Assembly (NCBI GenBank): GCA_045595285.1
Contig: JAZOAC010000135.1
Span: 23,822 to 87,821 of the forward strand
Direction of reading: 5' to 3'
Source: Kiritimatiellia bacterium
GTDB lineage: Bacteria > Verrucomicrobiota > Kiritimatiellia > RFP12 > UBA1067
Length of the DNA stretch: 64,000 nucleotides
Shown here: in pieces, positions 9,487 through 28,246 of the stretch
How the letters are laid out: every line of letters starts with the position of its first letter
Position numbering within the stretch: position 1 is the first letter of the stretch
Position numbers and translations under genes: made by a program
Notes under the pieces: generated by a model
Told to the model about the DNA's origin: nothing
What the model saw: only the letters and a program-made list of their open reading frames with translations
Databases searched by the model: none

Positions 9487-10878
9487 TTATATCCGTTTCG
9501 TTGCATTTGCAGCCTTACGAGGGGAAAATTCCAACACCTTGACGATTTTTTTGTTGTAGATGTCATGCACTGTCACTTTTAATTTTCCGTTTTCCGTCTT
9601 TCCCTCTATGACCGTCTGAAACTGTCCGCGGGCATTGTTCCATCTCCATCCTCCCGCAACAAGATGCGCCCAAGGACGGTCTTCGACGGGAGCATCATAA
9701 CGATATTTGTGGGTGTGAGCCGTCACAACAAGCTGTACGCCAGCCTTGATGAACAACGGTCCCCACATTTTCGAACAGGCTCTCTGCCAACTTGCAAAAT
9801 CCGTACGGTAGCGCGGGTCAGTATCGTTTGGATAGATGTCACCGGGGTTGCTTGTCGGATCGGAATCGAACAGCGGTATGTGGCAGAACGCGACAATGTA
9901 CGGGGCTGACTTTATCTCGGGACGTTCCAGCGCGTCGGCAAGCCATGCGGTCTGAGCGACACGATACGGCTCACTGCAGAAAAGCCCAGCGAACACATCA
10001 CGGGAATCAAGCTTGTCCTCGGCGGTATCCAACCCTATCAAAGCGATGTCGCCCTGCCGGAAAGCGAAATTTCTCCCAAGATCCCAGTCACGTGAAAGCC
10101 GCTCCTCCGGCTGGCGGAACATCACCACCTTCTCCAGTCTGCGGCATGCCATGCCTCGCATGTCATGATTGCCTGGCACGAAGCATACCGGCATCTCCGA
10201 AGCATAATCGCGACGTTCGATCGGAGGCGCGAGAAAAATATTGCGAAGGCTTTCGATCGTTTCCTGGGTATTACAGGCGTCACCATTCCAAATTACCACC
10301 GCAGGATTCAATTCCGCAACTTTGTCCGTCACCTGGGCGAACTCTTCCCATTTCGCGTGGGTATCGTTGTACACGCAGAAATGAGACCTTGCATCCTCCC
10401 CGGACGTGGTGAACGTATAAACCCGCGGATCCTGTTCAACGCCTATGATGCGCATCTTGTATCCGCCGCCGTAGAATATGCGGTCAGCCCCGATGCGGTA
10501 GAAATACTTTGTTGACGGTTTGAGACCGGTAAGCCTGACCAACATGACCTTATCGTTCATGTCTGTCACGCGGAATCCTCCGCACTTGACCTTGCGCGCA
10601 TTCCTCATATCCGCAAATTCCGAATACTCGACGAAACCGTTGGCCATCGCACTCACGGCAAATGCGACACCCATGGAAGTCGGCGCCGGATTCTGGAGCA
10701 TCGGAGCGGAAATTATCAGTTTTCCGGATGCGGACCGGGAATATCCTGTGTCTATTTCCGCGACAGCTTTGACACTCGCTCCGCCTGAGTGATCTACACT
10801 CCTTTGCGACACGCATCCAACACCTGCAACCGATGAGGCAACGGCGGCAAACGACTTTACAAAATCACGTCTGTTCAT
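9487..10878 (-). CDS. Tat-exported metallophosphoesterase (purple-acid-phosphatase-like)
   Basis: 463 aa. Twin-arginine leader MNRRDFVKSFAAVASSVAG. Metallophosphatase motifs NDTH, GDACN, GNHDMRG, CHIPLF, AHTHKY. N-terminal beta-sandwich-like region. Confidence 0.75.
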   Translation of the reverse strand: MNRRDFVKSFAAVASSVAGVGCVSQRSVDHSGGASVKAVAEIDTGYSRSASGKLIISAPMLQNPAPTSMGVAFAVSAMANGFVEYSEFADMRNARKVKCGGFRVTDMNDKVMLVRLTGLKPSTKYFYRIGADRIFYGGGYKMRIIGVEQDPRVYTFTTSGEDARSHFCVYNDTHAKWEEFAQVTDKVAELNPAVVIWNGDACNTQETIESLRNIFLAPPIERRDYASEMPVCFVPGNHDMRGMACRRLEKVVMFRQPEERLSRDWDLGRNFAFRQGDIALIGLDTAEDKLDSRDVFAGLFCSEPYRVAQTAWLADALERPEIKSAPYIVAFCHIPLFDSDPTSNPGDIYPNDTDPRYRTDFASWQRACSKMWGPLFIKAGVQLVVTAHTHKYRYDAPVEDRPWAHLVAGGWRWNNARGQFQTVIEGKTENGKLKVTVHDIYNKKIVKVLEFSPRKAANATKRI

Positions 10879-11403: not shown

Positions 11404-11472
11404 TTCCTTTTCCTTTCCATTTTCATCTTCATTATAGTTGTTTAGACTCGGGAAGCGTTGAATGCAATCATG

Positions 11473-12933
11473 TCAAACACTCATCTGCCCTTTGATTCTG
11501 CCTACGTTCTTGAAATCAATCTTAGAGACATCCATCTCTGCATCCATGAGATTGCAATTGCATTTCTTCTTCCATGCGCCACGCGTAAAATCGGGGATGT
11601 CCAGAGCCTTCGAACGATTTCTTGCGCTTCGTTCGGAAAGTTCGCAGATCGCGCACCAGGACGCAAGGTCATACACATCCATGTCGAGAGGGAGCCCTCT
11701 CTGCATGCAATATGCCCAACGAAGGTCCATCATGAAGTCCATACCACCATGTCCTCCGGCCTTTTTGACAGTTTCGCCCAGTGCCTTCTGCAACGGATGG
11801 CGATATTTCTCCCTGAGCCTCTCCGTGACATTTTTGTCATAGCATGTGTGTGCCGCCTTCTTCGGCCACTTGTCAAGTTCTTCGAGGCACACCTCAAGAT
11901 GCGGATAACTGCGCATCATCCCTTTTGTCCCGGCAATGAGATTTATACGGGAATATGGACGCGGCGAGGTCACATCGTGCTGAAGCATGATGGTACGGCC
12001 AAGCGCGGTGCGGATCGTCGTCACATTCATGTCGGCCATTGCAAAGCGCTGCGCCCTCCCCGGATTGCCGTCAGGGAGAGTTGCTGCGGCAAACGCCTCG
12101 TACCCCCGCTGCATTCCATCCACGGAAACGAGATAGTCAAAGCGGTCACCTCGGTTTATGCCCATATCCAAGGCTATAGGTCCCAATCCATGAGTGGGAT
12201 ACTGGTTGCCGCCGTGCTTTTCGTTCCAGTAGTTGCGCCAACGCTTTCCCGGCACCTCTTTCCAGGAGAAATCATTGAATATCTGCCAGCGACGGTCGTG
12301 TATGTACGCGCCTTCACCATGGAGAAGATCTCCCAGCATGCCAAGCTTGCAGAGATTGAGCGCCAGCATCTCATACTCGCCATAGCAGCAATTCTCAAGC
12401 TGCATGCAGTGCCGTTTTGTCCGTTCGGCGGTTTCCACAAGTTCCCAGCATTCATCTACGGACATCGCGGCGGGAACTTCGATGAGCGTGTGTTTGCCCG
12501 CTCTCATTGCATACAGCGAAACCGGCGCATGCGCATTCCACGAAGTACAATTGTACACAACATCCACATCCGGATGGTCACACAGCTTCTTGTACGCCTC
12601 TGCGCTCCCGGAATACACCACAGGCCGTTTTCCGGAACGTTCCTCGATGGCTTTTGCACATCTCTCGGCGAACCATGTCCTGATGTCACAAAGCGCGACA
12701 ATTTCAATGCCCGGAATGAAAGGAAGCCGCCGTGCGGCGCAATACCCGCGTTCCCCCAGACCTACAATGCCAACACGGATTTTATCTATCGGAGCACACC
12801 TGAAATTCCGCATCGGCATCCCCTGAACACCGGAGACGCAGGATTGTCCGGCGGCAAACCCGCTCACCACTCCCGACCCCCCGGCCGCCATGGCGATTCC
12901 TTTTATGAATTCGCGTCTATTTGAGTTTTGCAT
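11473..12933 (-). CDS. Tat-exported Gfo/Idh/MocA-family NAD-dependent enzyme, GH109-like
   Basis: 486 aa. Leader NRREFIKGIAMAAGGSG and Rossmann start IRVGIVGLGERG. Size and Tat leader are typical of GH109-type alpha-N-acetylgalactosaminidase-like proteins. Confidence 0.7.
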   Translation of the reverse strand: MQNSNRREFIKGIAMAAGGSGVVSGFAAGQSCVSGVQGMPMRNFRCAPIDKIRVGIVGLGERGYCAARRLPFIPGIEIVALCDIRTWFAERCAKAIEERSGKRPVVYSGSAEAYKKLCDHPDVDVVYNCTSWNAHAPVSLYAMRAGKHTLIEVPAAMSVDECWELVETAERTKRHCMQLENCCYGEYEMLALNLCKLGMLGDLLHGEGAYIHDRRWQIFNDFSWKEVPGKRWRNYWNEKHGGNQYPTHGLGPIALDMGINRGDRFDYLVSVDGMQRGYEAFAAATLPDGNPGRAQRFAMADMNVTTIRTALGRTIMLQHDVTSPRPYSRINLIAGTKGMMRSYPHLEVCLEELDKWPKKAAHTCYDKNVTERLREKYRHPLQKALGETVKKAGGHGGMDFMMDLRWAYCMQRGLPLDMDVYDLASWCAICELSERSARNRSKALDIPDFTRGAWKKKCNCNLMDAEMDVSKIDFKNVGRIKGQMSV

Positions 12934-12945
12934 GTCACCATCTCC

Positions 12946-13998
12946 TTACTTTTCCATTGCCACCGCAAGCTGATCCATACCTGCGTAGTTAAAACGAAAC
13001 GCACTCTCGCCCTTGCAGTCGGTCCAGGAGGCCATCATGAACCCCTTGAGTCTGCTATGGGAAATATGTGCGCGGCAGAACTCCACCACCTTTCCGGCAC
13101 AGTCGGAATTATCCGTCCTGCCAGACTTCTTAAGTTTGCCCGACATCCAATTCGAGGAACACGGCACCTGGTCAAACCCGGCCCTGTCCAGATCACAGAA
13201 CAGGCGCAGTTTAGGCTTGAACCACTCCTTCATCTTGTCGATTTCATAGCCCTGTGCATCTTCGTTATAATACCAGTTGCTTTGAAGAACGCTCTTGGGG
13301 CATTTCTGGACAAACTCAGGATGCCTCCAGCCGTAGTCACTGAATATCCATGCGCGTGAGCCTGTCTTCTCAACCTCGTTCACAAACCAAAAGAGGTCGT
13401 GCCACCACAATTCGTTCTGTCTCAAGATCACAAAAGAGCGCTTGCGCTGATTTTCGGTTTTCTCCTCATCGAAACCAAGATGGATGTAGCGGGGGTGCTC
13501 AAATATCTCCGACACATCCTTGATGATATCCGAACAGACGCGGTAATATATCTTCGTGGACACCATACGTCCATATTCCTTGAGCCACTGATGATGGGAT
13601 GCGGAGAAATTCACTTTCGGGATCGGCTCCAGTCCCATAGCCTTAAGGCGACGGACCTCCGTGTGCATGCGGTCTGCGCTCCAGCTGCCCTTCACTGCGA
13701 GTTCCGGATGGCTCGGATACGCAAGAAACTCCCCCAGATCCATCACCACCATGTTGTAGCTGCACTTTACGGCATGATCAATCGTACGCTTCCAGATGTT
13801 TTCCGAAAAATATATCGCATCCCGCGTATAGCGTTTGCCGTCGATTCTGGGTTCACCCGGAGCGATCCACTCGCCCCACATGTTCATGCCCATATGAAGA
13901 AGCACCGCACGGATATCCTCCGGCTTCTTCGCGAATGCGGGTGGTGAGATGAGGGCCGACGCGGCAACAGCCGATTTAATAAAGTCACGTCTGTTCAT
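12946..13998 (-). CDS. Unassigned TIM-barrel-like glycan enzyme, paralogue P1 (Tat leader)
   Basis: ORF 12946..14010 starts at a GTG. The ATG at 13998 gives MNRRDFIKSAVAASALISPPAFA. Family motifs: LLHMGMNMWGEW, AYPSHPELAVKGSWS, VNFSASHHQWL, YIHLGFDEE. Confidence 0.7.
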   Translation of the reverse strand: MNRRDFIKSAVAASALISPPAFAKKPEDIRAVLLHMGMNMWGEWIAPGEPRIDGKRYTRDAIYFSENIWKRTIDHAVKCSYNMVVMDLGEFLAYPSHPELAVKGSWSADRMHTEVRRLKAMGLEPIPKVNFSASHHQWLKEYGRMVSTKIYYRVCSDIIKDVSEIFEHPRYIHLGFDEEKTENQRKRSFVILRQNELWWHDLFWFVNEVEKTGSRAWIFSDYGWRHPEFVQKCPKSVLQSNWYYNEDAQGYEIDKMKEWFKPKLRLFCDLDRAGFDQVPCSSNWMSGKLKKSGRTDNSDCAGKVVEFCRAHISHSRLKGFMMASWTDCKGESAFRFNYAGMDQLAVAMEK

Positions 13999-14009
13999 GA
14001 TCCACCGCA

Positions 14010-16634
14010 CTACCTTATCGAAATCTGGAATCCGGGGATGAACGGTTCAAGACCGCCATCAGCACCCACGCGTACGCGGAGCCTGTCGGCGCCGCAGCGT
14101 ATTTTGGAGATTGAACCGCTTTCAATGCGCAATGTCGCGCCGCTTCCGAGATTGTCCGAAACAAGAAGCGACGCACCTTCTTCGAAGGAGCAGGATACAA
14201 GCGTAAGCGTGGAACCATTCCCGAGAACCAACGGGGAATCCGCCTCCTTCACCACAAGTGCGCCGATGCTGTTCACGGTGCCTGACGCGGTCTCCAATCC
14301 ACCGCCGGCCAACCAGATCGCCGCCCTGGTGTTTTCGCCGGATTCCTGACGTTTGCGGCTTACCTTGAACTGGTCGCTTGCAGCAAGCCGCAAGACACCG
14401 TTGCTAACGCATATTTCGTTCGGAAGCGTGACATCCCCCGAGAGCTCCAATGTTCCGGTGCCATTCTTGACAACATGCACATTCCAGTATCCGTTCGCCT
14501 CCGTATTAAACGAATGATAATCAACGATATTCCCTGTGACGAAGAAATCCGAGCCGTCAGAAACATCATTTACGTTGAAAGTAAACGTCCTCTCTCCGTC
14601 ACCGCCCGCAGCCAAGATGACCAGACCACTCTCGCAAATGGATGGAGAATCGCCGGTCACTATCCAGTTAGCACGTTGTGCGTCATTCAGGACTCGTGCC
14701 GGCTTGCCCTTGATGTTTGCGCCATCCATAAACGTAACATAGTTCAAATATGTATCGGACTCCGTTGCACTTTCCTCCTCCTCGCGAATTGAGAGCGTCC
14801 CGCCAACAAGATCAATCTGATCTGTTGTAGCAGTCTGCAAAGCACCTTTCAGTTTAAGAACGCCATTTGTCATTACACGATATTTCGTCCAACGGGGATT
14901 TTGCACATGGCCGGAAAGTGTCAATGAGGCGTATGGATTTACGGTGACGACACTGTTGGAAGGAAATACAGTTGTGTCTACTGACCGCACCGCAAGCGGA
15001 GAGCTTTCACTTCCGCCGAATGTCAGGTTTCCGCCATTCACGGCGGTGCTTACAGCAGCATATACCACTCCTCCAGTAGCAAATCGCAGACGCAAATTTT
15101 TAATGCCCCTTGATGTTGCCGAATCCGACACCCCGAACCCTCCCAATGTCGTACGAGATGCCGTGGTATATTGTTTGTAGTTGTAAAAATCCAACCCGTA
15201 TGCAATCGATGGATCATCGACTTTCTTTATATACCAATTCCGATATCTTCCAGTGCGAGCCTCAATGTCGTTTCCATTCTGCTTCAAATCCAGCCCGATG
15301 CAATAGATATTGTTTTCATTTTCATCCTGAAACTGTACCGAACCGGCATTACCTGAAATATTCAGATTCACTCCATGCACATAATGCCCTTTATTGGCAT
15401 CATTATGATAGAAAGCATCCACCTCCACAAGATCCGAAAGATCATGGTTCTTTGCAATCGACGTGTAATAGTTTACTCCTCCGTCATCATATGCGTTAGG
15501 CATGTATTCCTCTCTTGCAACCGTAGCACGAGACCGGAATCTCAGGCCAATGTCTTTCACCCCGTGGCTGCCGCTTTCATCGGACGTCGCAAGGCTCCCA
15601 TATCGTCCCAACAAAGGCGAAGAACCTGCATCCGTGCTGAAATGCTCGAAGTCCATGCCCAAATGAACCTGATCGGCAAAGTAATCGTCTACAAGAACGC
15701 CATCCACATAATTTGTGGTAGAAATCTTATAGGTACGATATTTGCTCGTGTACGCTTCCACGTTTTCGCCGTTTTGCCTGAACTCCACAAGCACTCCCGT
15801 AACCAACGTGGGAGATGACTGCAACTGGAACTGGCATGTTTTTTCGCCAAAGCGACTACTTACGTGAGTATATTTAAGATTGTATGCCTGTTGTTCATCA
15901 AAGAGGTTTTTCCCGAAATGGTATTTCCCGGAAACCGAATCAAGATCGGCAAGGCTGCAGTTTTCCGCGACTACAACCCATTCAGCATCCGGGAGGTATC
16001 CGGCTCGAAAATGCGATGCGACTACGGCGTTTGTCACAATAATGTCGCCATTGCCTACTATCGTTTCGCCAATCGAGTCTCCCTCATATACGGAGTATTC
16101 GACCGGTGCGGCAGGCTTGCGCATGGCTATGAAACTTATGTTGAATGCTGAACGGGTACCTGCGGTGAGCGGACGTGGCAACACCCGAGGATTTTTCGCA
16201 TCAACCATTGCGTCAAGGTCCATGCCAAGTTCCACGTCAAGCGGGTTGAGCGAAGCCGCCCTAACAGTATAGGCTATAATGTCGTTTCCGCTTTGCACAA
16301 ACTTAACTGTGACCGAAGCTGTGTACGGCGTCGGCGTAGATGTGCGCGTTACACCCTGAAACTGCACAGTCGCCGACTCCACCCCATTTTCTGACGACCT
16401 GACGATGTTGTATGGTCGCAGAATCTCGTTGTGGAGATCCTGATTTATCTGCCACCGTTGCCCGGAAGACGAACCTTTATTAAAATAGGCGTATGCCGGT
16501 TCATAATCCGAAAGCTTCATACCTGTGAACACCGTATCCGGCTTGTCTGGATCCGATGAGAGCACCTCGTTTGAGGCAGCCTCAAAGGTAATGAAATCGT
16601 CCGACTGCTGAGCATTTGCAAGCAGCATAGTCAT
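14010..16634 (-). CDS. Large secreted beta-helix/PATR-like exoprotein, paralogue 1; signal peptide is encoded upstream of the first in-frame start (see poly-A tract)
   Basis: 874 aa. Three internal repeats of an unrecognised module, then a PATR-like segment (VKNGTGTLELSGDVTL ... NGVLRLAAS). Ends PGFQISIR. The frame is open upstream to TGA 16677-16679 and encodes KKKKIHLGLCVACSMTMLLANA. Confidence 0.8.
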   Translation of the reverse strand: MTMLLANAQQSDDFITFEAASNEVLSSDPDKPDTVFTGMKLSDYEPAYAYFNKGSSSGQRWQINQDLHNEILRPYNIVRSSENGVESATVQFQGVTRTSTPTPYTASVTVKFVQSGNDIIAYTVRAASLNPLDVELGMDLDAMVDAKNPRVLPRPLTAGTRSAFNISFIAMRKPAAPVEYSVYEGDSIGETIVGNGDIIVTNAVVASHFRAGYLPDAEWVVVAENCSLADLDSVSGKYHFGKNLFDEQQAYNLKYTHVSSRFGEKTCQFQLQSSPTLVTGVLVEFRQNGENVEAYTSKYRTYKISTTNYVDGVLVDDYFADQVHLGMDFEHFSTDAGSSPLLGRYGSLATSDESGSHGVKDIGLRFRSRATVAREEYMPNAYDDGGVNYYTSIAKNHDLSDLVEVDAFYHNDANKGHYVHGVNLNISGNAGSVQFQDENENNIYCIGLDLKQNGNDIEARTGRYRNWYIKKVDDPSIAYGLDFYNYKQYTTASRTTLGGFGVSDSATSRGIKNLRLRFATGGVVYAAVSTAVNGGNLTFGGSESSPLAVRSVDTTVFPSNSVVTVNPYASLTLSGHVQNPRWTKYRVMTNGVLKLKGALQTATTDQIDLVGGTLSIREEEESATESDTYLNYVTFMDGANIKGKPARVLNDAQRANWIVTGDSPSICESGLVILAAGGDGERTFTFNVNDVSDGSDFFVTGNIVDYHSFNTEANGYWNVHVVKNGTGTLELSGDVTLPNEICVSNGVLRLAASDQFKVSRKRQESGENTRAAIWLAGGGLETASGTVNSIGALVVKEADSPLVLGNGSTLTLVSCSFEEGASLLVSDNLGSGATLRIESGSISKIRCGADRLRVRVGADGGLEPFIPGFQISIR

Positions 16635-16663
16635 GCTGCAGGCAACGCAAAGACCAAGGTGTA

Positions 16664-16673
16664 TTTTTTTTTT
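16664..16673 (-). repeat. Homopolymer A10 (T10 on + strand) between GTG/RBS and the signal peptide of exoprotein 1
   Basis: Counted directly: gtaTTTTTTTTTTctttcac. GGAG at 16691-16694 and GTG at 16678-16680. A9 or A12 would fuse the GTG to the long ORF. Confidence 0.95.
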
Positions 16674-16714
16674 CTTTCACAACACCATTTCTCCTTTCTA
16701 ATGTTTGGAAACGA

Positions 16715-17863
16715 TTACCATTCGGCAACGGAGCCATCGGCATGACGCCAGACAGGGTTCTTCCAGTTGTGGGGATTCTTATTTTCCTCCATGACAAGCT
16801 CTTTGTTCACTTCGACACCGAGACCGGGGCGCTTCGGCAGCTCCACCGTGCCGTCAGTAAACTTGAAGTCATCCTTGTTGGTCACGTAATCGAGAACCGT
16901 CTTTCCGACATTGTAGTGGATGCCGATGGACTGCTCCTGGATAACCGCATTGTAGCTGATCGCATCGACGTGTAGGCACGCCGCAAGCGCAATCGGTCCG
17001 AGCGGACAGTGCGGAGCGAGCGCCACATCGTACGCCTCCGCCATAGCGGCAATCTTCTTGACTTCTGTAATGCCGCCGGCGTGCGAAAGGTCGGGCTGGA
17101 TGATATCCACGCCGCCAGAGGCAAGAAGCCTCTTGAAGTCATACTTGGTGAAAAGACGCTCTCCGGTCGCGATCGGCACATTGCATGCGGCGGCGATCTC
17201 CTTGAAGTCCTCCATGTGCTCGCAGAGAACAGGCTCTTCGATGAACATCGGGTCAAACTGTTCAAGCTTCTTCGCGAGCACCTTCGCCATTGGCTTGTGG
17301 ACGCGTCCATGGAAATCTATGGCGATACCGAAGTACTTGCCGCAGGCGTCTCGGATCTCCTGCACACGGGAGAGGACCGCATCCACCTTGTTATAAGTGT
17401 CGATCATCTGCAGCTCTTCGGTCGCGTTCATCTTCACCGCGGAGAATCCGGCGTCCATCTTCTCCTTCGCGGCGCGCCCGGTATCGCCGGGACGGTCACC
17501 GCCGATCCAGGAATAGACCTTCATCCTGTCGCGGCAACGTCCGCCCATCAGCTCATAGACGGGGGAGTTGAACACCTTGCCCTTGATGTCCCACAGCGCC
17601 TGATCGATACCGGAAAGCGCACTCATCAGCACGCCGCCGCCGCGGTAGAATCCGGCACGATAGATTGTGCTCCATATATCCTCGATGCGGGAAGGATCCT
17701 TGCCGATGAGATAGTCGTGGTATTCCTCCACGCAAGAGAGAACAGCCTTGGCATGTCCTTCAAGCACAGCCTCGCCCCATCCGGCCAGACCGGTATCAGT
17801 TACGATCTCCACAAATCCCCAGCGGGGACGGACAAAATAGACGTTTACCTTATCGATTTTCAT
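16715..17863 (-). CDS. dgoD: D-galactonate dehydratase (enolase superfamily)
   Basis: 382 aa. WGFVEIVTDTGLAGWGEAVLEGHAKAV ... YLIGKDPSRIEDIWSTIYRAGFYRGGGVLMSALSGIDQALWDIKGK closely parallels the DgoD N-terminal region as I remember it. Confidence 0.9.
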   Translation of the reverse strand: MKIDKVNVYFVRPRWGFVEIVTDTGLAGWGEAVLEGHAKAVLSCVEEYHDYLIGKDPSRIEDIWSTIYRAGFYRGGGVLMSALSGIDQALWDIKGKVFNSPVYELMGGRCRDRMKVYSWIGGDRPGDTGRAAKEKMDAGFSAVKMNATEELQMIDTYNKVDAVLSRVQEIRDACGKYFGIAIDFHGRVHKPMAKVLAKKLEQFDPMFIEEPVLCEHMEDFKEIAAACNVPIATGERLFTKYDFKRLLASGGVDIIQPDLSHAGGITEVKKIAAMAEAYDVALAPHCPLGPIALAACLHVDAISYNAVIQEQSIGIHYNVGKTVLDYVTNKDDFKFTDGTVELPKRPGLGVEVNKELVMEENKNPHNWKNPVWRHADGSVAEW

Positions 17864-17890
17864 AATGATTCCTCATTTATCTTATGTTTT

Positions 17891-19342
17891 TCAAGAAAAT
17901 TTCCATTCGGTGAAAATCGGATCACCTTTATTACCGAAACTGTCGCAGGGGCGCACGGAAAAACGGTAGCGGCGGCCACGCGAAGGATCAAGCCTCCCGT
18001 TCGGCGCGGGCAGGTCCGAAAGCGCAAACGGACAGACGACCGTTTTCGCGTCCGCCGCCTCGCCCTTGTAGAAACCGGACGAATACACGCGCTTCGTGCG
18101 CCGCACCTTCACGGCATCAACATCCATTTCCTGCAGCTGCACCTCGAAATCGAACGCCCGGGCTCGTCCACCGGCGGCAAAAACATTTGGGAACGAAACG
18201 AACAGCGCCCGCACGGATTCGCCCTTGCGGTCGGCCGCAAACCCCTCTCCGACCGATATCTCCGCATCATCGGCAAACTCCGGAGGCTTCGAGCGCAGCG
18301 CCCGTTTGACGAGCGGATCGACCCTGCCCGGAATCGGCACGATCCAATCGTCCCCGAGCGAAAGATCATTCGCGAAATCACGCCGTTCGAAGGCGATTCT
18401 GTCCCGATAGACGCGGCAGACCATTCCATGCTTGCCGTCTTCCGGGCGAAGCCTCGGCAGAAGCTGATCACCGGTATCGACAGCACCGTCGATCTCTGAG
18501 TTTTCGCGTCCCCCGAACGGTATCAGAAACCGCAGAGCCGCCGTTCCGACCGATGTGAATTCCCCGCGCCAGAGAGTACGCTCGTCGTTGAGCGGCGTGT
18601 GCGAATGCCCTGAGACGGCAACCGCATTGGAAAATTTCGACAGCGCTCTGGTTGCCGTGCCGTCATCCTGTCCCCACGTCCACGGCGCACTGCACGTACC
18701 CCGCGGATGCATATGCTGAACAAAGAAAAACACATCCTCTCCGGCAAGTTCGGATTCCATCCCGGCAAGATATTCCGGAAGGTCCGTCTGTCCGGGCGGC
18801 GCAGTGCGGCGCTGACGGTCGTTCCGGTACTGGTAGCTGGAGCCGACAAAACAGACGCCGTTGATCCGCTTTTTCCACAACGGCTCGTATTCGCAGCCGA
18901 AAAGACGCTTCCATTCTCTGCGCAAACGATCATCGGCATCAAGATTCTCGGCGACAACGCGATCCCACGGCATTTTGATTTCGTCCGCCCAGTCACGGCT
19001 CCAGCGCTGAAGGTCGTGATTGCCGAGGACCGTAAGCAGTTCGACCCTGCGGCCGTCAGCCCCACGACCGTCGGGGAATACGGAGAACCACGCATTCGCA
19101 AGATGCTCCAGTTCGCCGGAGAGTCCGTTGTCGATCATGTCTCCCGCCATGACTACAGCGTCCACCTGCCGGTCGCGGAAATACCTGAGCGCATGGACGG
19201 TCTCCTTCGCCGACTCCGCATCGACGATGTGCATGTCGCTCAGGATTCCGAACACGAGCCGAGGCCGCTCCGCCGCAAATGACGGCATCGCAACCGCGGC
19301 CACAGCTCCGCCCAAAAAACCTCTGCGGGAAACCGCGTTCAT
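17891..19342 (-). CDS. Tat-exported metallophosphoesterase
   Basis: 483 aa. Leader VSRRGFLGGAVAAVAMPSFA. Motifs LSDMHI, AGDMIDNG, GNHD, VQHMHP, GHSHTP. Extra C-terminal beta-rich domain. Confidence 0.75.
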   Translation of the reverse strand: MNAVSRRGFLGGAVAAVAMPSFAAERPRLVFGILSDMHIVDAESAKETVHALRYFRDRQVDAVVMAGDMIDNGLSGELEHLANAWFSVFPDGRGADGRRVELLTVLGNHDLQRWSRDWADEIKMPWDRVVAENLDADDRLRREWKRLFGCEYEPLWKKRINGVCFVGSSYQYRNDRQRRTAPPGQTDLPEYLAGMESELAGEDVFFFVQHMHPRGTCSAPWTWGQDDGTATRALSKFSNAVAVSGHSHTPLNDERTLWRGEFTSVGTAALRFLIPFGGRENSEIDGAVDTGDQLLPRLRPEDGKHGMVCRVYRDRIAFERRDFANDLSLGDDWIVPIPGRVDPLVKRALRSKPPEFADDAEISVGEGFAADRKGESVRALFVSFPNVFAAGGRARAFDFEVQLQEMDVDAVKVRRTKRVYSSGFYKGEAADAKTVVCPFALSDLPAPNGRLDPSRGRRYRFSVRPCDSFGNKGDPIFTEWKFS

Positions 19343-19346
19343 TCAA

Positions 19347-20303
19347 TCAATCCTCCACTATATCAAACACGCGGATGTAATCGACGGCGAAGTCGTCGCC
19401 GAGAGCCTCGTCCAACCGAGGATCTTTCGTGGCGTTCTTCTTGTAGTTCATCGCTTCGGTAGTGATGTAGATGAACTCCTTCGTCTGGGAGACGACTTCG
19501 CCTTTACCCTTGCCGACCTTCTCACCGTGCTGTCTGCCGTCGACAAAAATCGTAAATCCGTCGCTCTCCCACAGCAATCCGTACGTATGGAACTCCTCGG
19601 AACCGAGCTTGAGGATGTGCGGACTCGTCTTCGGCTTTTCGCCCGGCTTCATGCGCGGAGTGACGAACACTCCGTAGTCTGGACCGTAGCCGTTGTAGTG
19701 GAAGCAGTGCGGAATAACCTCGCCCGGGACGAACGACTCCATCACGTCAATCTCCACTCCGCTCCGCGCCGGATCGAGCGTCGCGCCAATATCCACGGAA
19801 TTGAGCCAAAACGCGCTCCACCAGCCGGGCTTGCGCTGAAGGCGGCACCGGCATTCGTAATAGCCGTACCGATGCTCGAACTTCGGCGCTTCACGTTTCC
19901 GGTACGCCCAGCGGCGGAATCCGTTCTGTCCACGGTCGCTCAGTTCGGGATCGACCGGTTCGTCCCAGATGCGGTTGCCCGTCTGGAGACTCGCGGAGCA
20001 GAACTGACCGTCCGGACGTTTCTTCAGCTTCATGTACATTATGCCGTCCTTGAACTCGAGCGTGTCGTCTTCAGGACCTGCAAACCAGCTCGCCCGCTCG
20101 CCCATGTAGTTCGTGCGGTACATCCATTTCGAATCATCCAACCTGTCGCCGTTGAATTCATCATTCCATATGAGCTTAAAGTTCTTGCCCGGCGGCAAAA
20201 GCGAAACCGCCTCCCCTTTTACAGCCTCAACCGTCTGTGGCGGTCTTGCATCCCAGACGATCGCCGAAGCGAACGCCAGCATCGAAACAGTCAGAACGTT
20301 CAT
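19347..20303 (-). CDS. GH16-family endo-glycanase
   Basis: 318 aa. Signal peptide, WNDEFNGDRLDDSKW, and the catalytic ExDxxE block GVEIDVMES. The ATG overlaps the upstream stop (ATGA at 20300-20303). Confidence 0.85.
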   Translation of the reverse strand: MNVLTVSMLAFASAIVWDARPPQTVEAVKGEAVSLLPPGKNFKLIWNDEFNGDRLDDSKWMYRTNYMGERASWFAGPEDDTLEFKDGIMYMKLKKRPDGQFCSASLQTGNRIWDEPVDPELSDRGQNGFRRWAYRKREAPKFEHRYGYYECRCRLQRKPGWWSAFWLNSVDIGATLDPARSGVEIDVMESFVPGEVIPHCFHYNGYGPDYGVFVTPRMKPGEKPKTSPHILKLGSEEFHTYGLLWESDGFTIFVDGRQHGEKVGKGKGEVVSQTKEFIYITTEAMNYKKNATKDPRLDEALGDDFAVDYIRVFDIVED

Positions 20304-21295
20304 ATCTGATCCTTCCCTTCAAACATTGCACGAGCAACATCGTTCATGTCGCAACCGGCCATAAACTTAAAGTCTCCATCCTTGGTGGAAGTGCACCATG
20401 GCACCATGAAGAATCCCGAAATCCGTTCCGGTGGGATATGCTTTCTGCAGAACATCGCAAGATTCGGATGATTCTTCACGTTGACTGCAAGACCTCTCGC
20501 CTTCAGTCTGCCGCTGCACCATACGCTGCCGCACGGGACAAGGTCGAATCCTTTCTCCGCCATGCGCGTAAACACGTCGCTGCGCGAATGGTCGGAATCA
20601 ACCGCCGCTTTTGGATCCGTGAATCGTTCCGCATAGCTCCACGGCGAATGCAGAAAGGATTTCGGCAGACGCGCATAGAATTCCTTCGGATCACGGGTTC
20701 CCGGATTGGAGAACATCCACGGACGGCTGTTGTTCTTCTCCAGGCACTTTGCGTAGAATCCGATGTCATGCCACCACAGATCACCCTCACGGTACACGCA
20801 GTACGCATTGCCGCTGGACCACTTGTACCCCTCTTCATCCATGCCGATGTGGAAATAGGGAGGATTGTCGAATATCTCGCAGGTGTCGTCGATGAGATCC
20901 TTCACCACCTTGTAGTATGTCGGCGATGAGATCATACGCGCGTAATCGCCCAACCAGAAGTCGTGGCAGGTGGAGAAATTGAGTTTCGGCACCACCGTAA
21001 GCCCGCCCGCCTTGAGGCGCTTGACTTCCCTGTTGAGCTTCTCCGCGCTCCAGCTTCCCTTGACGGCGATTTCGGGATGGGACGGATAAACCACACCCTC
21101 TCCGACGTCGATGACAAGCGTATTGGTACCGGATCCCGGCTCCAGCAGGCGCTTCATCCGCAGATTCCAGGATGCATCCGTGCACAGCAGACGGTCCGTA
21201 CAGAAATTAGACCATTTCATGCGGCCGGGACCCCGCCAGATCGCCTCGTCATGCCACATGTTGTAACCCAGATGCTGCATCACTGCCCAGATCAT
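20300..21295 (-). CDS. Unassigned TIM-barrel-like glycan enzyme, paralogue P2 (no signal peptide)
   Basis: ORF 20300..21394 is over-extended. The ATG at 21295 forms an ATGA overlap with the stop of P3. Motifs: MQHLGYNMWHDE, VYPSHPEIAVKGSWS, LNFSTCHDFWL, YFHIGMDEE. Confidence 0.7.
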   Translation of the reverse strand: MIWAVMQHLGYNMWHDEAIWRGPGRMKWSNFCTDRLLCTDASWNLRMKRLLEPGSGTNTLVIDVGEGVVYPSHPEIAVKGSWSAEKLNREVKRLKAGGLTVVPKLNFSTCHDFWLGDYARMISSPTYYKVVKDLIDDTCEIFDNPPYFHIGMDEEGYKWSSGNAYCVYREGDLWWHDIGFYAKCLEKNNSRPWMFSNPGTRDPKEFYARLPKSFLHSPWSYAERFTDPKAAVDSDHSRSDVFTRMAEKGFDLVPCGSVWCSGRLKARGLAVNVKNHPNLAMFCRKHIPPERISGFFMVPWCTSTKDGDFKFMAGCDMNDVARAMFEGKDQI

Positions 21296-22104
21296 ATCGT
21301 CATCTCCTTGAGAGTGCCCAAAACACGGGAAGACGGCAATTTCCCCACGATCACCGCATCTCCGTCCGTACGGATGAACGGGACAGAGTCGCATCCGGCC
21401 TTAACCACCTGCATGAAACGGTCCGCATTGCGCCTTACCGTCAGCGGCTTCAGATTGGAATACACGATGTCCCGCGGACAGTCCGCCAGAAAATCCTTCA
21501 TTCCCCACGGATAATCGAACCATGCCCATGTCCGCGCCCCCGTCTCCTTCACCCAGTCGGAGGTCTTGGCAAGATAACGCATCCAGAGATCTCCTTGGCG
21601 CATCACCGCATACCCTCCTGACGGATGTTGCGTTTGCCCCTCATCCGAGAATCCGATGTGAATGAACCGCGGAGAACCGAATATTCCATACGCGTCCTTC
21701 AAGAGGTCGCGGACAAGGGCGTCGTACGGCTTTGAACACACCATACGGTCGTAGACGCCAAGCCACGAATCCCGTGCAGTGCAGAAATCAAGGAGCGGAA
21801 CGACTTCGATCCCGCCATCCTTCAACCCTTTGACCAACGCCGAAGCCTTCTCCGGTGACATGGAACTCTTCGTTGCTATTTCGGGATGGGATGGATAAAC
21901 GACGCCGTCCTGGACATCCACCAAAGCCACATTGAAACCGCCGGCGCAAAGCTTCGCTTTCAATGCCGATGCGGAAGCTCCGCCGAAAAAGGATTTTCCC
22001 GCAAGCAAAGCCGCCTTGAACGGTCGCTTATCCGAGGCAAATGACGGGAAAGTCAGACCGGCAACCACCGCGGAAGCTCCTGACATGAACTGTTTGCGTG
22101 TCAT
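21292..22104 (-). CDS. Unassigned TIM-barrel-like glycan enzyme, divergent short paralogue P3 (Tat-like RK leader)
   Basis: The ATG at 22104 is preceded by GAGGAG and gives MTRKQFMSGASAVVAGLTFPSFA. Motifs: VVYPSHPEIATKSS, LDFCTARDSWL, FIHIGFSDEG. Lacks the LLHxGxNMW block. Confidence 0.65.
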   Translation of the reverse strand: MTRKQFMSGASAVVAGLTFPSFASDKRPFKAALLAGKSFFGGASASALKAKLCAGGFNVALVDVQDGVVYPSHPEIATKSSMSPEKASALVKGLKDGGIEVVPLLDFCTARDSWLGVYDRMVCSKPYDALVRDLLKDAYGIFGSPRFIHIGFSDEGQTQHPSGGYAVMRQGDLWMRYLAKTSDWVKETGARTWAWFDYPWGMKDFLADCPRDIVYSNLKPLTVRRNADRFMQVVKAGCDSVPFIRTDGDAVIVGKLPSSRVLGTLKEMTI

Positions 22105-22114
22105 TGGCAACTCC

Positions 22115-24442
22115 TCACCGTACGATAACCCTGAAAGCGACCGGACGAAGATATCCGGCGGAATTCTGCGCAACCATCTTTCCGTTCACCCGAATGGCTC
22201 CAAGATGCGCGGAGGAAAGAGAGGCAGATTCACCAAACCTGATCGAACTGCGAGATGCAATGTCGGAAACGACAAAATTAACTGAACCATTCTCCGGCCA
22301 ATCCGTCGCAGGAGGCTTGATTGTGACGGAAGATCCTTCACCGAGTGTAATTGTCGATGCAACACCGGGAATCACCTCGCCCATCGTCAATGCGATTCCG
22401 TCCGCAATCTCAAGATTGCCGCCTGACAGCTTGAAATCCGTCGATTCGCTTGCCGATTTTGGATGGGCGAACCGCCATGTCCCGTCTGCAATCACGGTGG
22501 GCTGATACGGGGTGTACGCCGCCTCCATGCTGACGGTTCCGGGACCTTCCTTGCGGATGTAAGCGGATTTGTAGGCTTCAAAATCAGCATCGCCGACAGG
22601 ATAGAAAAGCCGTATCGGATTCGTAATCCTGAAATCAGCCTCCGCGTTGCCGGTCACGTCCTCGACCTCCATCACGATCGCGCTTGGATCTGCATCCTTC
22701 GCCGGAAACAGAGACATTCCGGTCGCACACACCGATGGAGCGGTGCCTGTAACATACCATCTGGGGTTCATGCCGTATCCGACACGCGGCGCCGCACCTA
22801 AAAGCTTCGCGCCATTCTCGAAATGCATATAGTTGAGATACAATCCGGCATCATCGTAATTCTCCTTGACGGACGTTCTCCCGCTCCAGTATCCGACCAC
22901 AAACGTACCTCCGTTCAGGCATACGCCGTATGTCGATGCCGCCGGAATGCACATTGACGCTCCCTGATACAGGAATCCGCCGTTCTCCACGACAAGTCGC
23001 CCCGTCTCCAATGAACCTGAAAGCACGGCATGACCACCACGCCCTACGACAAGCTGGCCTGACGACGGAATGCTTCCGGCGGAGAACTGCACCATCATAG
23101 GGGACTTGTCGCCACCGCTGACACGAACGACCGATCCCGTAGACATGGAGCTGCGTCCTTCAACCACGGCAACATGCGTCAACGCACCTTCCGCGAAGAA
23201 CAGCTTGAGACTGTGAAGCCCTACTTGTCCCCTATCGGTATAGGAACCGTCTTCATTCCTTTGTTCCGGTATTGTCATCCCCTGACACTCGGAGGACATC
23301 TTCTCAAAATCAATGTCGCCATATTGATAGGAACTTTCAGAAAAACCGTTCGCCCAAGGGGAATTGAACGAATAGGACGCTATGCAGGCCTGTATGTCAC
23401 GCCCCATCTGACGCAATCTGAGCAGACACCCCGTCTGGTAGCTGGAACTTACTTTGTTGTATATCTGCAAAGCGGCATAGGCACCGTTGTTCCGCCAATG
23501 GCTATATGCGGCGGGATCTTTATCGCCGCCTGTTCTGCTGCCGCACAGAATGGCGGTAACATTGGTCAAAGAGGACAGCAATCGGTCCTTGGAAACGGTT
23601 TTCCATTTATCATTGAGAAAGACATCTTTGCCGCACTCAACATCCAACGCCGAATCCGTACGCATCTGTGAAGCCTCGTAGACAATGTCCCCGTCGCCAG
23701 ACACCGCGCCGGAATACGTCTTCTCCTGAGGATTGCGTATGGTCATGACGCCGTCCACACGAAGGTTCCCGGAATATGTCCCCGGAGACTGTACGATTGC
23801 GGAAGCGCCCGTCGCAATGTATTCCGTATCGGAAGGGACTTCAATATCGCCTTCTATCGGAGAGGCCGTCTCTGTCGTTTCAGAAAGCCCTCCCAAACGG
23901 CGCAAAGCGATGAAGTCAACGCCGTATCCCTTTTCAAAGCCACCGCCTGCATCCTCAAGATCGTATCCGGCGCTGCCTTTCACAACTGTCTTGCCGTCGA
24001 AAAGCGATTCCATGTCCCTGCCGTACAGATGCGTGCCGGCCGCCACATAAACGCCGGACAGCCAGGCGTAGACATCGGCATCGCGCTGTTCAAGAATGAC
24101 ATCGAACTGATATGTCGTGTATTTACCGTCATATTTTCTGGCCGCCTGAAGAATGGTTTTCACCCTCTTCTTCCCGTCGGACTCATACCTTCTTTCTGCG
24201 ATGGGCATAAAATCGAACCGTCCGGCACCGTGCAGATAAATGTAATTACCCTTATATTTACTGTAAGATGCGTTTGCCGCAGCCCTTACGGCATAGTCGT
24301 CGACAGAAATGTTTTCAAACACCTTGCGGGCATTTGTCTTGGAGTTGTTTATCATCAATCCCCTATATGTCAAGGTGTACGGGGCTCCTCCCCGCAGGAA
24401 AAGCGGGACACTTGCGGCAATCAACAGCAACATAATTCGCAT
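22115..24442 (-). CDS. Large secreted beta-helix/PATR-like exoprotein, paralogue 2
   Basis: 775 aa. AAGGAG RBS, signal peptide MRIMLLLIAASVPLFL, and two copies of the module seen in paralogue 1. The C-terminal half is homologous to paralogue 1 (LYLNYMHFENGAKLLGAAPRV vs TYLNYVTFMDGANIKGKPARV). Ends VAFRVIVR. Confidence 0.8.
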   Translation of the reverse strand: MRIMLLLIAASVPLFLRGGAPYTLTYRGLMINNSKTNARKVFENISVDDYAVRAAANASYSKYKGNYIYLHGAGRFDFMPIAERRYESDGKKRVKTILQAARKYDGKYTTYQFDVILEQRDADVYAWLSGVYVAAGTHLYGRDMESLFDGKTVVKGSAGYDLEDAGGGFEKGYGVDFIALRRLGGLSETTETASPIEGDIEVPSDTEYIATGASAIVQSPGTYSGNLRVDGVMTIRNPQEKTYSGAVSGDGDIVYEASQMRTDSALDVECGKDVFLNDKWKTVSKDRLLSSLTNVTAILCGSRTGGDKDPAAYSHWRNNGAYAALQIYNKVSSSYQTGCLLRLRQMGRDIQACIASYSFNSPWANGFSESSYQYGDIDFEKMSSECQGMTIPEQRNEDGSYTDRGQVGLHSLKLFFAEGALTHVAVVEGRSSMSTGSVVRVSGGDKSPMMVQFSAGSIPSSGQLVVGRGGHAVLSGSLETGRLVVENGGFLYQGASMCIPAASTYGVCLNGGTFVVGYWSGRTSVKENYDDAGLYLNYMHFENGAKLLGAAPRVGYGMNPRWYVTGTAPSVCATGMSLFPAKDADPSAIVMEVEDVTGNAEADFRITNPIRLFYPVGDADFEAYKSAYIRKEGPGTVSMEAAYTPYQPTVIADGTWRFAHPKSASESTDFKLSGGNLEIADGIALTMGEVIPGVASTITLGEGSSVTIKPPATDWPENGSVNFVVSDIASRSSIRFGESASLSSAHLGAIRVNGKMVAQNSAGYLRPVAFRVIVR

Positions 24443-24460
24443 GGCGTTTACTCCTTTGTT

Positions 24461-25552
24461 TCAGATTTTAAGATCCGTTTTTGCAGGCTGTGCATCCATT
24501 GCATCCGCAATCTGGTCTATGGCGCTCTGCCAGTAGTATTGAAGATCGGGCTTGATTTCGCCCCACGGTGCGATCATCATTCCCATGAGCTTTTCATCGG
24601 CGAAGTGGGATCTGGCGTACTTCCACATCCATTCCGCCGCCTTCGGGTCCTGCGGATAATCCTTTCCTGTCGGCCACGGCTTGGGCATCTCGCCCTTCCA
24701 TACCCAGTTGCTGGTGAGGGCGAGGACTTCGAAACCGGCCTCATTCAGCTTTTCCATGGTCTCGAAGGTCTTCACCTTGCGCACCAGATGTTCCGTCGGA
24801 CGCTGAGGATTGCATTTAAGCCGTCTTTCGATATCGGCGCGAATCGCGTCCACATCATGTCCGTGTCCATAAAGCCCGATGTTCTGAACCACCGATTTCG
24901 GCATGCGCGAATAGAAATACTCCGGATATGTGCCGGCGACATAACTGGAGAATACAACGGCCCGCGTCCGGTGCTTTTCGAGACAGTCGAGATAGTGGAA
25001 GAAATCCCTCCACCACAGCTCCGCCCGGCGTATGATGACGAGAGGAAACTTCTTCTGCATCTCAAGATTCTCCTCATCCAATCCGAGGTGCATGAACCTA
25101 GGATTTCCGAACACCTCGCAGACGTCGTCGATAATCTCCTTCACCGCCTTGCGGTATATGTCGGTGGAGACCATGCGCCCGTATTCCTTGAGCCATCCGT
25201 CATGGCACGTGGAGAAATTGAGCTTCGGAACCGCCTCAATCCCCATGGACTTGAGTCTCCTGACCTCGGCGGCAAGCTTTTCCGCGCTCCAGCTTCCTTT
25301 GACCGCGAGTTCGGGATGGCTCGGATAGACAAGCCCTTCACCCACATCGATGACTGCCATGTTGAGGCGCCGTTCCCGCATCCGTTCCGTAAGGGCATGC
25401 CATACATTCCCGTCGGTCCGAAGATGTCCGCATGTGTATGTGAGTCCTTTTTCCCTTTTCTCGCCGGGAGCAAGATACTCCCCCCACATGTTCTGTCCGA
25501 GATGAAGAAGTATCGCCCTGATCTTTTCCTTATGTGAAGCGCAGTCTGCCAT
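24461..25552 (-). CDS. Unassigned TIM-barrel-like glycan enzyme, paralogue P4 (no signal peptide)
   Basis: ORF 24461..25582 begins at a TTG overlapping the tannase stop. The ATG at 25552 gives MADCASHKEKIRAILLHLGQNMWGEY. Motifs: VYPSHPELAVKGSWS, LNFSTCHDGWL, FMHLGLDEE. Confidence 0.7.
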   Translation of the reverse strand: MADCASHKEKIRAILLHLGQNMWGEYLAPGEKREKGLTYTCGHLRTDGNVWHALTERMRERRLNMAVIDVGEGLVYPSHPELAVKGSWSAEKLAAEVRRLKSMGIEAVPKLNFSTCHDGWLKEYGRMVSTDIYRKAVKEIIDDVCEVFGNPRFMHLGLDEENLEMQKKFPLVIIRRAELWWRDFFHYLDCLEKHRTRAVVFSSYVAGTYPEYFYSRMPKSVVQNIGLYGHGHDVDAIRADIERRLKCNPQRPTEHLVRKVKTFETMEKLNEAGFEVLALTSNWVWKGEMPKPWPTGKDYPQDPKAAEWMWKYARSHFADEKLMGMMIAPWGEIKPDLQYYWQSAIDQIADAMDAQPAKTDLKI

Positions 25553-27337: not shown

Positions 27338-28246
27338 CTATTTGCGGCACATGCTAGGAGATATGCCGGTGATGCGCTTGAATACTGTCGCGAAATGTTG
27401 CGGCGACGGGAAACGGTAGCGGCTTGCTATTGCGGCTACGCTCAATTTCGGATTGGCGAGATCGGCACGCGCACGCTTTACCCGCACATCAAGAAGATAT
27501 GCATGAGGCGTAAGACCTGTCGCGCGCTTGAACGCATCAATAAATGCAACCGTCGACAACGCTGCCTCTACCGCCATGTCCTCAACCGAAAAATCGGCCT
27601 CAGGAGTTTTCTCCATTCGTGCAACAATCGTCTTCACCTTGGAATTCGGCCTTCCAAGAGGCGATGGCGGCAGTTTCGGCAGCTCAATCAAAGCAAGCAG
27701 AAGCTCCAATGCCGCGGACTTCATCGCCAGCCTTCGCATCAGCGTACCGCGTTCTTCCTGATCGTACAGCCTGAACAACCGTTCGAAAGCGACGCGAACC
27801 CGCTGCGAAGAAGGACAGATCATATACGGAAATGCAAGCAATCCCCGTGATATCAGAGAACTTTCACTTGGTGTCAAACCAAGAATCGACGAGCCTTTTT
27901 TCGGCATCTTGAAAAGCAGCCTGTAAAGACGCATCCCCTTGGGATTGTTGCATCTCCGATGCGGCTCACCCGGTTTGGACACAAACAACTGCCCCGGAAG
28001 TATCTGACATTCGCCATTCGCGGTGTCATATCGTATGTTCCCTTTAAGGCAGAGACTTATTTCCACATGTTCAGGGTGAATATGCAGATCCACACCATTC
28101 CGCAACGACCTGAAACTGCTGCTGGCAAGCACGGGAATGCAATCGCATCCGTCGGGACGCAAATCGATTATGCGCCAATCATCGCCATCATCATACCTGA
28201 TTGGCTCGATGCTTATGCCGTCTTTTTTATTTGGAAGACGGCTCAC
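27338..28246 (-). CDS. AraC-family transcriptional regulator with N-terminal cupin sensor
   Basis: The C-terminal double HTH ends FATVFKRITGISPSMCRK. The cupin region is VDLHIHPEHVEISLCLKG ... LFVSKPGEPH. The ORF-track start 28453 would overlap lacZ by 227 nt. A GTG at 28244-28246, preceded by GGAG at 9-nt spacing, is the most plausible start. Confidence 0.75.
   Translation of the reverse strand: MSRLPNKKDGISIEPIRYDDGDDWRIIDLRPDGCDCIPVLASSSFRSLRNGVDLHIHPEHVEISLCLKGNIRYDTANGECQILPGQLFVSKPGEPHRRCNNPKGMRLYRLLFKMPKKGSSILGLTPSESSLISRGLLAFPYMICPSSQRVRVAFERLFRLYDQEERGTLMRRLAMKSAALELLLALIELPKLPPSPLGRPNSKVKTIVARMEKTPEADFSVEDMAVEAALSTVAFIDAFKRATGLTPHAYLLDVRVKRARADLANPKLSVAAIASRYRFPSPQHFATVFKRITGISPSMCRK

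Follow-up and report, generated by a model that had tools for sequence, protein, structure and literature searches.

A far-diverged GH20-lineage family missing from annotation in a Kiritimatiellia bacterium

The window analysed here is a stretch of 64,000 nucleotides from contig JAZOAC010000135.1 of a gut Kiritimatiellia bacterium, and it encodes four paralogous proteins, P1 to P4, which are representatives of a family missing from standard annotation. We find that this family is a very divergent, unannotated branch of the lineage of glycoside hydrolase family 20 (GH20; clan GH-K), extending a known kind of enzyme rather than constituting a new kind, and that its nearest relatives are the compact group GH20:19.1. 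The placement in the GH20 lineage was made because sequence profiles, predicted structure, and the GH20 proteins of the same genome, three independent lines, converge on it. We further consider it probable, at roughly 75%, that these proteins are divergent GH20-lineage glycosidases, retaining and substrate-assisted, of the β-N-acetylhexosaminidase or “biosidase” type, that trim glycans containing N-acetylhexosamine (HexNAc). An earlier note on this DNA had suggested an undescribed clan of glycosidases or esterases; the proteins proved instead to match GH20, an already characterised CAZy family, with confidence, an outcome which that note had itself named as speaking against its proposal, and nothing points to an esterase. 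The four genes and the two elements of P1 on which the argument relies are as follows, residue numbers being those of P1 throughout and Tat standing for twin-arginine translocation.

12946–13998, minus strand: P1, 350 amino acids, ATG at 13998; Tat-leader form with all catalytic and subsite residues intact (translation, AlphaFold 2 model, Foldseek, key-residue table)
13462–13482, minus strand: H-L-G-F-D-E-E block of P1 (H177 to E183), with D181/E182 as the putative catalytic pair (alignment to GH20 proteins and conservation within the family)
13930–13998, minus strand: twin-arginine leader of P1, MNRRDFIKSAVAASALISPPAFA (sequence; Pfam TAT_signal E = 0.0047, below threshold)
20300–21295, minus strand: P2, 331 amino acids, ATG at 21295; leaderless, active-site residues intact, coupled to P3 upstream and to a GH16 gene downstream
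21292–22104, minus strand: P3, 270 amino acids, ATG at 22104; R-K leader, stripped barrel, S-D-E in place of D-E-E
24461–25552, minus strand: P4, 363 amino acids, ATG at 25552; leaderless, D-E-E and Y248 intact, Gly at the position of W246

Placement of the family in the GH20 lineage

All four open reading frames (ORFs) were found on the minus strand, and their products align end to end with 32–43% identity to P1, in agreement with the paralogy that had been proposed; the shared motifs quoted in support of it are all present in the alignment, apart from the losses in P3. The further statement that the copies share long nucleotide identity applies to one locally conserved stretch, encoding YPSHPE(L/I)AVKGSWSAEKL, but overall the identity is only 63–72% over 285 nucleotides, a level that appears ordinary for old paralogues and gives no sign of recent conversion. 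In a maximum-likelihood tree, P1, P2, and P4 fall in separate subclades, each closer to proteins of other organisms than to each other.

The absence of curated annotation was borne out. Searches of P1–P4 against Pfam and NCBIfam returned no family above threshold and only a weak TAT_signal match, and relatives in public records carry uninformative names (“Tat pathway signal protein” or “hypothetical protein”). When 42 members were scanned singly, sub-threshold matches to the GH20 model PF00728 appeared in 10 of them (best E = 5.7e-4), making it the commonest non-signal family touched. A family profile built from 42 sequences and searched against 177,635 sequences of the PDB matched Niako3494 (8bal) at E = 1.7e-7, TrdeGH20 (9fym, 9fyl) at ∼7e-5, and Am0868 (7cbn) at 3e-3, the weaker matches being further GH20 enzymes plus marginal ones at chance level.

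The structural evidence agrees with the profiles. The AlphaFold 2 model of P1 (predicted local distance difference test score [pLDDT] 92.2, predicted template modelling score [pTM] 0.88) has alternating strands and helices, and the check for a TIM barrel by AlphaFold and Foldseek that had been suggested for P1 yielded a catalytic (β/α)8-type barrel; in the Foldseek search against the PDB the top 50 matches were all GH20, with E of ∼1e-10, probability 1.00, and query-normalised template modelling (TM) scores of 0.52–0.60. Within the organism's own genome, the family profile also matched, with E values of 1e-14 to 1e-5, ORFs that are mostly ∼520 amino acids long; four of these were scanned, each of which exceeded the PF00728 threshold, with an additional GH20b match in two. 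Alignment of the family with five own-genome GH20 paralogues by hhalign (three of the five were scanned, and all three pass PF00728) gave a probability of 99.1% and E = 1e-18, the 195 aligned columns covering strands 2–7.

The active-site region can be followed onto GH20 at the level of single residues. HLGFDEE aligns to fHVGLDE of Niako3494 in the profile comparison and to HIGCDEA of the own-genome GH20 proteins in hhalign, and the likeness of H-x-G-x-D-E to the GH20 catalytic strand, which had been remarked on from the sequence, thus reflects true homology by profile search against the PDB, Foldseek, and hhalign. The accompanying impression that the remainder is unlike canonical GH20 did not hold: GH20 counterparts align as well to YPSHPEL...KGSWS, IPKLNFSxxH, the strand-8 Trp, and the W-x-Y that follows strand 6. 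In HMMER alignments the YPSHPEL...KGSWS block falls on KSHPELAGER of Niako3494, PKLNF...H on its PKMNL (Asn118, His122), F223 on Trp239, and W329 on Trp342, while S-N-W246-Y-Y248 aligns in hhalign to the invariant C-D-W-Y-Y of the own-genome GH20 proteins (W400-x-Y402). The catalytic machinery and subsite −1 of Niako3494 and TrdeGH20 comprise Asp-Glu, Tyr279, Trp239/277/342, and Asn118/His122, the Tyr lying, unusually, two residues past the strand-6 Trp and not after strand 7 (PMC11776370). Among 231 full-length family members, conservation is 97% for D181, 99% for E182, 96% for Y248, 98% for W329, 99% for N134, and 100% for H139; Trp or Phe occupies position 223 in 224 (97%), W246 is kept in 74%, and D-E-E is retained in 357 of 373 family sequences. 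E183 and R197 are invariant (231 of 231), E183 being kept even in the 4% of sequences in which D181 or E182 is replaced, and these two residues may form a structural pair.

Comparison with solved enzymes places the family beside Niako3494 (8BAL) and TrdeGH20 (9FYL, 9FYM; CUPP groups GH20:19.1 and 60.1), which like the family are ∼320–380 amino acids long and lack GH20b, and which are both the best PDB profile matches of the family and the top structural matches of P3. They share with it SHPEL after strand 2, PK(L/M)N...H after strand 3, H-x-G-x-D-E at strand 4, a Trp after strand 8, and, in place of the strand-7 Tyr, the unusual W-x-Y that follows strand 6. The identity in structural alignments is only ∼12–17%, however, and the family differs in its long strand-1 loop (HxGxNMW...W73), in the Tat leaders of many members, in staying below threshold for PF00728, and in lacking the Zn-binding Cys cluster of these enzymes (a Cys before helix 3 and C-x-x-C after strand 4). 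Canonical GH20 β-N-acetylhexosaminidases and lacto-N-biosidases (e.g., GcnA 2EPN, GH20C 5A6A, StrH, LnbB 4H04, human HexB 3LMY) have in common with the family the barrel, the Asp-Glu after H-x-G-x, and the aromatic pocket, but are usually multi-domain with GH20b, place the Tyr after strand 7, and carry on strand 1 a conserved Arg, typical of exo-HexNAc-ases, through which O3/O4 are bound and subsite −2 is closed; no such Arg could be aligned in the family, and the GH20:19.1 group is without it. Dispersin B-type enzymes (1YHT, 8QCE) are single-domain GH20 barrels of similar length and are among the structural matches of P1 and P3, but they are recognised by standard GH20 models, act on poly-β-1,6-N-acetylglucosamine (GlcNAc), and show no special sequence affinity to the family. 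The canonical GH20 proteins of the own genome carry HxGCDE...CxxC, whereas the family has no CxxC. Six larger own-genome ORFs that are weaker matches of the family profile (C167:11044-12615, C45:296-1867, C179:24210-25766, C133:58597-60159, C68:2477-4030, and C114:30362-32344) have HxG(C/L)DE followed by C-x-x-C, resembling the Zn-binding Cys cluster of GH20:19.1/60.1; PF00728 was passed by each of the three that were scanned, of which those on C167 and C133 have GH20b and that on C114 does not.

Predicted activity, family spread, and gene context

If the GH20 mechanism has been kept, P1, P2, and P4 would be single-domain (β/α)8 glycoside hydrolases using retaining, substrate-assisted catalysis, in which D181 would orient and polarise the 2-acetamido group of the substrate, E182 would serve as general acid/base, Y248 of the W-x-Y after strand 6 would stabilise the oxazolinium intermediate, and W/F223, W246, and W329 would line a pocket around the N-acetyl group. 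The enzymes are predicted to release either β-linked HexNAc or a disaccharide containing HexNAc from complex glycans; an open site accepting a disaccharide or a longer chain would fit a strand 1 that lacks a conserved Arg or Lys. Forms with a Tat leader, such as P1, are predicted to act in the periplasm, and the leaderless P2 and P4 would process oligosaccharides that have been imported into the cytoplasm.

The family is a moderately large one. When 1.84 billion representatives were searched exhaustively with the profile, 339 clusters (50% identity) were obtained at E ≤ 1e-30 and 749 clusters at a limit of E ≤ 1e-10, and a scan of reference genomes gave at least 549 confirmed stretches, the best 80 of which come mainly from gut and rumen metagenome-assembled genomes (MAGs) labelled Kiritimatiellae or Verrucomicrobia, other labels among these 80 being Lentisphaerae/Victivallales, Alistipes/Rikenellaceae, and Thermoguttaceae. 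There are 11 copies in the 3.8-Mb MAG from which the window derives and up to 18 per congeneric genome, and eight genomes of the same order but of other families had none at E ≤ 1e-20. Some members are fused to other domains of carbohydrate-active kinds, namely AXE1 esterase (twice), GH110-type β-barrels, and an FAD oxidoreductase. One 452-aa protein of the own genome (G000:C96:12107-13465) consists of an N-terminal domain that is not recognised, fused to a truncated family piece covering strands 2–4; it has lost H-x-G-x-D-E (RYFRIKTDG) and has no Pfam match.

Gene context supports HexNAc-containing complex glycans as substrates, without proving it. Copies in the window are neighbours of GH109, GH16, GH2, GH78, a tannase-type esterase, and metallophosphoesterases, and other own-genome copies lie near GH123, a DUF4838 protein, GH95, GH29, GH92, GH43, and GH106. 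At one own-genome locus the order is GH95, family gene, unknown gene, GH29 fucosidase, and GH92 mannosidase, a set in which a β-HexNAc-ase would be the activity one would expect.

Several points weigh against this assignment. P1–P4 themselves gave no match to PF00728 at E ≤ 1, and none of the 42 members scanned singly reached its gathering score. The structural similarity of P1 to GH20 is only moderate at the TM scores given above, with 12–14% identity. Strand 1 (LLHxGxNMW) was aligned to GH20 in no comparison, and no conserved Arg or Lys is found there; after strand 1 the family has a long loop of its own, HxGxNMW followed by W73. There is no GH20b domain, nor is there the Cys/Zn cluster that the nearest solved relatives have, the region after D-E-E containing no conserved Cys but E183 and R197. 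The roles of the residues could be shifted, as the strictly invariant E183 sits one position past the canonical pair. The neighbouring genes vary widely and include plant-type enzymes (GH78, GH106, and GH43), and the substrate has been inferred for every member of the family.

A rival possibility is that the GH20-type barrel and its carboxylate pair have been kept for another specificity or reaction (for example endo-acting, non-HexNAc, phosphorylase, or transglycosylase), in which case the family would merit a CAZy family of its own. CAZy has a precedent, having split distant relatives of GH20 off as GH163 and GH185 (PMC10570127), and a similar course could be argued for here from the failure of every curated GH20 model at threshold and from invariant features that are foreign to GH20 (E183, R197, the HxGxNMW loop, and W73). 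Moreover, the nearest solved relatives are enzymes of atypical activity whose sites are open: unusual N-acetyllactosamine (LacNAc)-ase and 6-sulfo-GlcNAc-ase activities were recently found in the compact GH20 group (PMC11776370). Nevertheless, the residues of substrate-assisted HexNAc chemistry (Asp-Glu pair, Tyr, and aromatic pocket) are all conserved, and the parallel with GH163 and GH185 is incomplete. Those families (DUF4838; BT1035, Sp_0475), distantly related to GH20, have a TIM barrel and use substrate-assisted catalysis but lack the H-x-G-G-D-E signature, whereas the family studied here has H-x-G-x-D-E and no DUF4838 match. Membership in GH163 or GH185 was itself rejected (0 of 42 members match PF16126/DUF4838, and the D-E signature is present). 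We thus regard a changed reaction as unlikely and retain the assignment as HexNAc-trimming glycosidases. Subject to the criteria of CAZy, the family could become either a new subfamily of GH20 or a new family in clan GH-K; in both cases it extends a little-explored compact group, its recognition as GH20-type fills a gap in the inventory of carbohydrate-active enzymes of poorly cultured glycan degraders, and a concrete and cheap set of assays follows from it.

Exoprotein neighbours of the P1–P4 genes

The genes among which P1–P4 are interspersed include two for large proteins, called exoproteins 1 and 2, and every gene of the region is on the minus strand.

11473–12933, minus strand: GH109-type NAD-dependent glycosidase, directly downstream of P1 (Pfam PF21252 and PF01408)
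14010–16634, minus strand: “exoprotein 1”, 874 amino acids, no Pfam family, directly upstream of P1
19347–20303, minus strand: GH16 gene (Pfam PF00722), ATGA overlap with P2
22115–24442, minus strand: “exoprotein 2”, 775 amino acids, paralogue of exoprotein 1, between P4 and P3

The gene order is as had been described, exoprotein 1 being followed by P1 and, separately, P4 by exoprotein 2, P3, P2, and GH16; the ATGA overlaps reported for P3/P2 and P2/GH16 are present, the sequence reading ATATGA at both. The GH109-type protein matched PDB 6t2b (“Glycosyl hydrolase family 109 protein 2”) at E = 6e-95. For the GH16 neighbour, the nearest solved GH16 structures are mixed or ambiguous in specificity and provide no usable hint of substrate. 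A protein 99% identical to P4 is encoded on two metagenome contigs in ENA.

Exoproteins 1 and 2 are paralogues of each other (26% identity over ∼520 amino acids, E = 2e-25), and neither was recognised by the curated models of Pfam and NCBIfam. They had been termed PATR exoproteins, but the PATR and autotransporter-repeat models gave no useful match to either of the two, and the label is best taken as a description. By contrast, Pfam PATR does match (E = 3.8e-7) a 667-aa protein whose gene lies directly downstream of another family copy in the own genome (G000:C5:19039-21042).

The association of exoproteins with family members that had been pointed out is real in this genome, which has nine exoprotein-like genes: 6 of its 11 family copies have such a gene within 2.4 kb, and P1, P3, and P4 directly adjoin an exoprotein gene. 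It does not extend to other genomes, where it was seen at only 2 of 79 loci (phmmer and an iterated profile); a conserved functional link was therefore rejected, and the pairing is a feature of the loci of this lineage, not of the family. Clustering of the neighbours at the same 79 loci revealed no recurrent partner, the largest cluster comprising 4 loci. A Tat-leader metallophosphoesterase is one of the few neighbours that recur beside family genes in other genomes (4 loci; e.g., L001:2395-3789).

It is highly improbable, in view of these counts, that family members are non-catalytic sugar-binding or structural partners of the exoproteins, such as maturation or anchoring factors. The proximity within this genome would suit such a role, as would P3, which lacks the catalytic set yet is under purifying selection (see below), but apart from the scarcity of the pairing elsewhere, 357 of 373 sequences keep D-E-E together with the pocket residues, which would be unexpected of a protein that only binds, and the fusion partners are enzymes, not exoprotein domains. 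Lastly, xylose-isomerase-like proteins in bacteria of the Planctomycetes–Verrucomicrobia–Chlamydiae superphylum typically have Tat leaders and high numbers of paralogues, and weak AP_endonuc_2 matches occur in 2 of 42 members (best E = 8.5e-4), but a TIM barrel of the xylose-isomerase or sugar-phosphate-isomerase kind with a GH20-like motif by chance is effectively refuted by Foldseek (top 50 exclusively GH20 for the models of both P1 and P3), by the 99.1% hhalign match, and by PDB profile matches that are to GH20 only, save for those at chance level.

P3, protein export, and other features of the gene array

P3 begins MTRKQFMSGASAVVAGLTFPSFA and, as had been noted, has an R-K variant of the leader (T-R-K-Q-F) and lacks the first motif (the LLHxGxNMW loop); the C-terminal Trp region is gone as well. 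Its losses comprise the N43/W45 loop, N134 (Asp), H139 (Arg), D181 (Ser), W246 (Leu), Y248, and W329. The barrel nevertheless persists with eight strands and shortened loops in the AlphaFold 2 model (pLDDT 85.3, pTM 0.84), for which the best Foldseek matches were Niako3494 and TrdeGH20 (TM 0.64–0.72). An intact orthologue with the same S-D-E and R-K leader (73–75% identity) is found in a congeneric genome (G001), where it is ATGA-coupled to an orthologue of P2 (90% identity to P2) that is followed by GH16. The ratios of nonsynonymous to synonymous substitution rates (dN/dS) against these orthologues, at which dS is saturated, were 0.14 for P3 and 0.03 for P2. The idea of a decaying pseudogene was rejected in view of the intact orthologue and the ratio of 0.14; P3 is probably a non-catalytic, loop-stripped paralogue kept by purifying selection, and as such a small, clean example of a pseudo-enzyme maintained by selection. 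A binding role, or one as a partner of P2, would be a guess.

The partner role has one specific form, which draws on the R-K leader and barrel core of P3 and on its translational coupling to the leaderless, intact P2: P3 could be a catalytically dead “carrier” that pairs with P2 in the cytoplasm, both then being exported by Tat “hitch-hiking”. The order of a dead, leader-bearing copy followed by an intact, leaderless one was not repeated in tandem pairs elsewhere, which are nearly all intact and leader-bearing, and we consider the carrier idea very doubtful. If it were true, a glycosidase would be exported via a pseudo-enzyme subunit, and some “cytoplasmic” members of the family would be exported after all.

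The division into putatively exported and leaderless forms that had been seen among P1–P4 is real and spans the whole family. P1 has the twin-arginine leader ascribed to it (N-R-R-D-F-I-K, a hydrophobic region, and A-F-A), and P2 and P4 are leaderless as described: their N-termini are not hydrophobic, and no in-frame upstream extension provides a leader. The 231 full-length members include 94 that essentially lack an N-terminal extension, 68 with an RR leader, and 34 with the R-K variant (T-R-K-E-F). On the tree, leader status switches at least 11 times, a count that may be inflated by truncated metagenomic gene calls, and one half of the family is almost wholly leaderless. Written as T-R-K-(E/Q/D)-F, the variant of those 34 members includes the P3 leader (22036–22104), and Alistipes-type members combine the R-K variant with a lipobox-like Cys (MNRKDFIY...GVSC). 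No tatC could be detected in the own MAG, although many of its proteins carry Tat-type leaders, and one TatA was found (G000:C167:5085-5231). TatC is present in 12 of 12 congeneric genomes, most of which have two TatA/B genes; because of this, and because the MAG is 86% complete, the missing tatC is most likely an assembly gap.

The family genes lie within an array of ∼18 co-directional genes (3438–27210, minus strand) that runs, with gaps of 0–80 nucleotides, from a tannase-type esterase through GH78. An AraC regulator (27338–28453) lies upstream of it. A scan of the array for promoters and terminators gave results at chance level, with no terminator-like site above chance. Two metallophosphoesterases are encoded within it (9487–10878 and 17891–19342), and an enolase-superfamily dehydratase (16715–17863), an SSF symporter (7970–9460), a 2-keto-3-deoxy-6-phosphogluconate (KDPG) aldolase (7318–7968), and a PfkB kinase (6235–7260) may constitute a sugar-acid branch. 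Long open frames of 429–502 amino acids run antisense to the array on the plus strand (24029–25537, 19020–20309, 17009–18499, and 11458–12924); these are most likely shadow ORFs, because homologues or Pfam matches exist for the minus-strand genes that they oppose.

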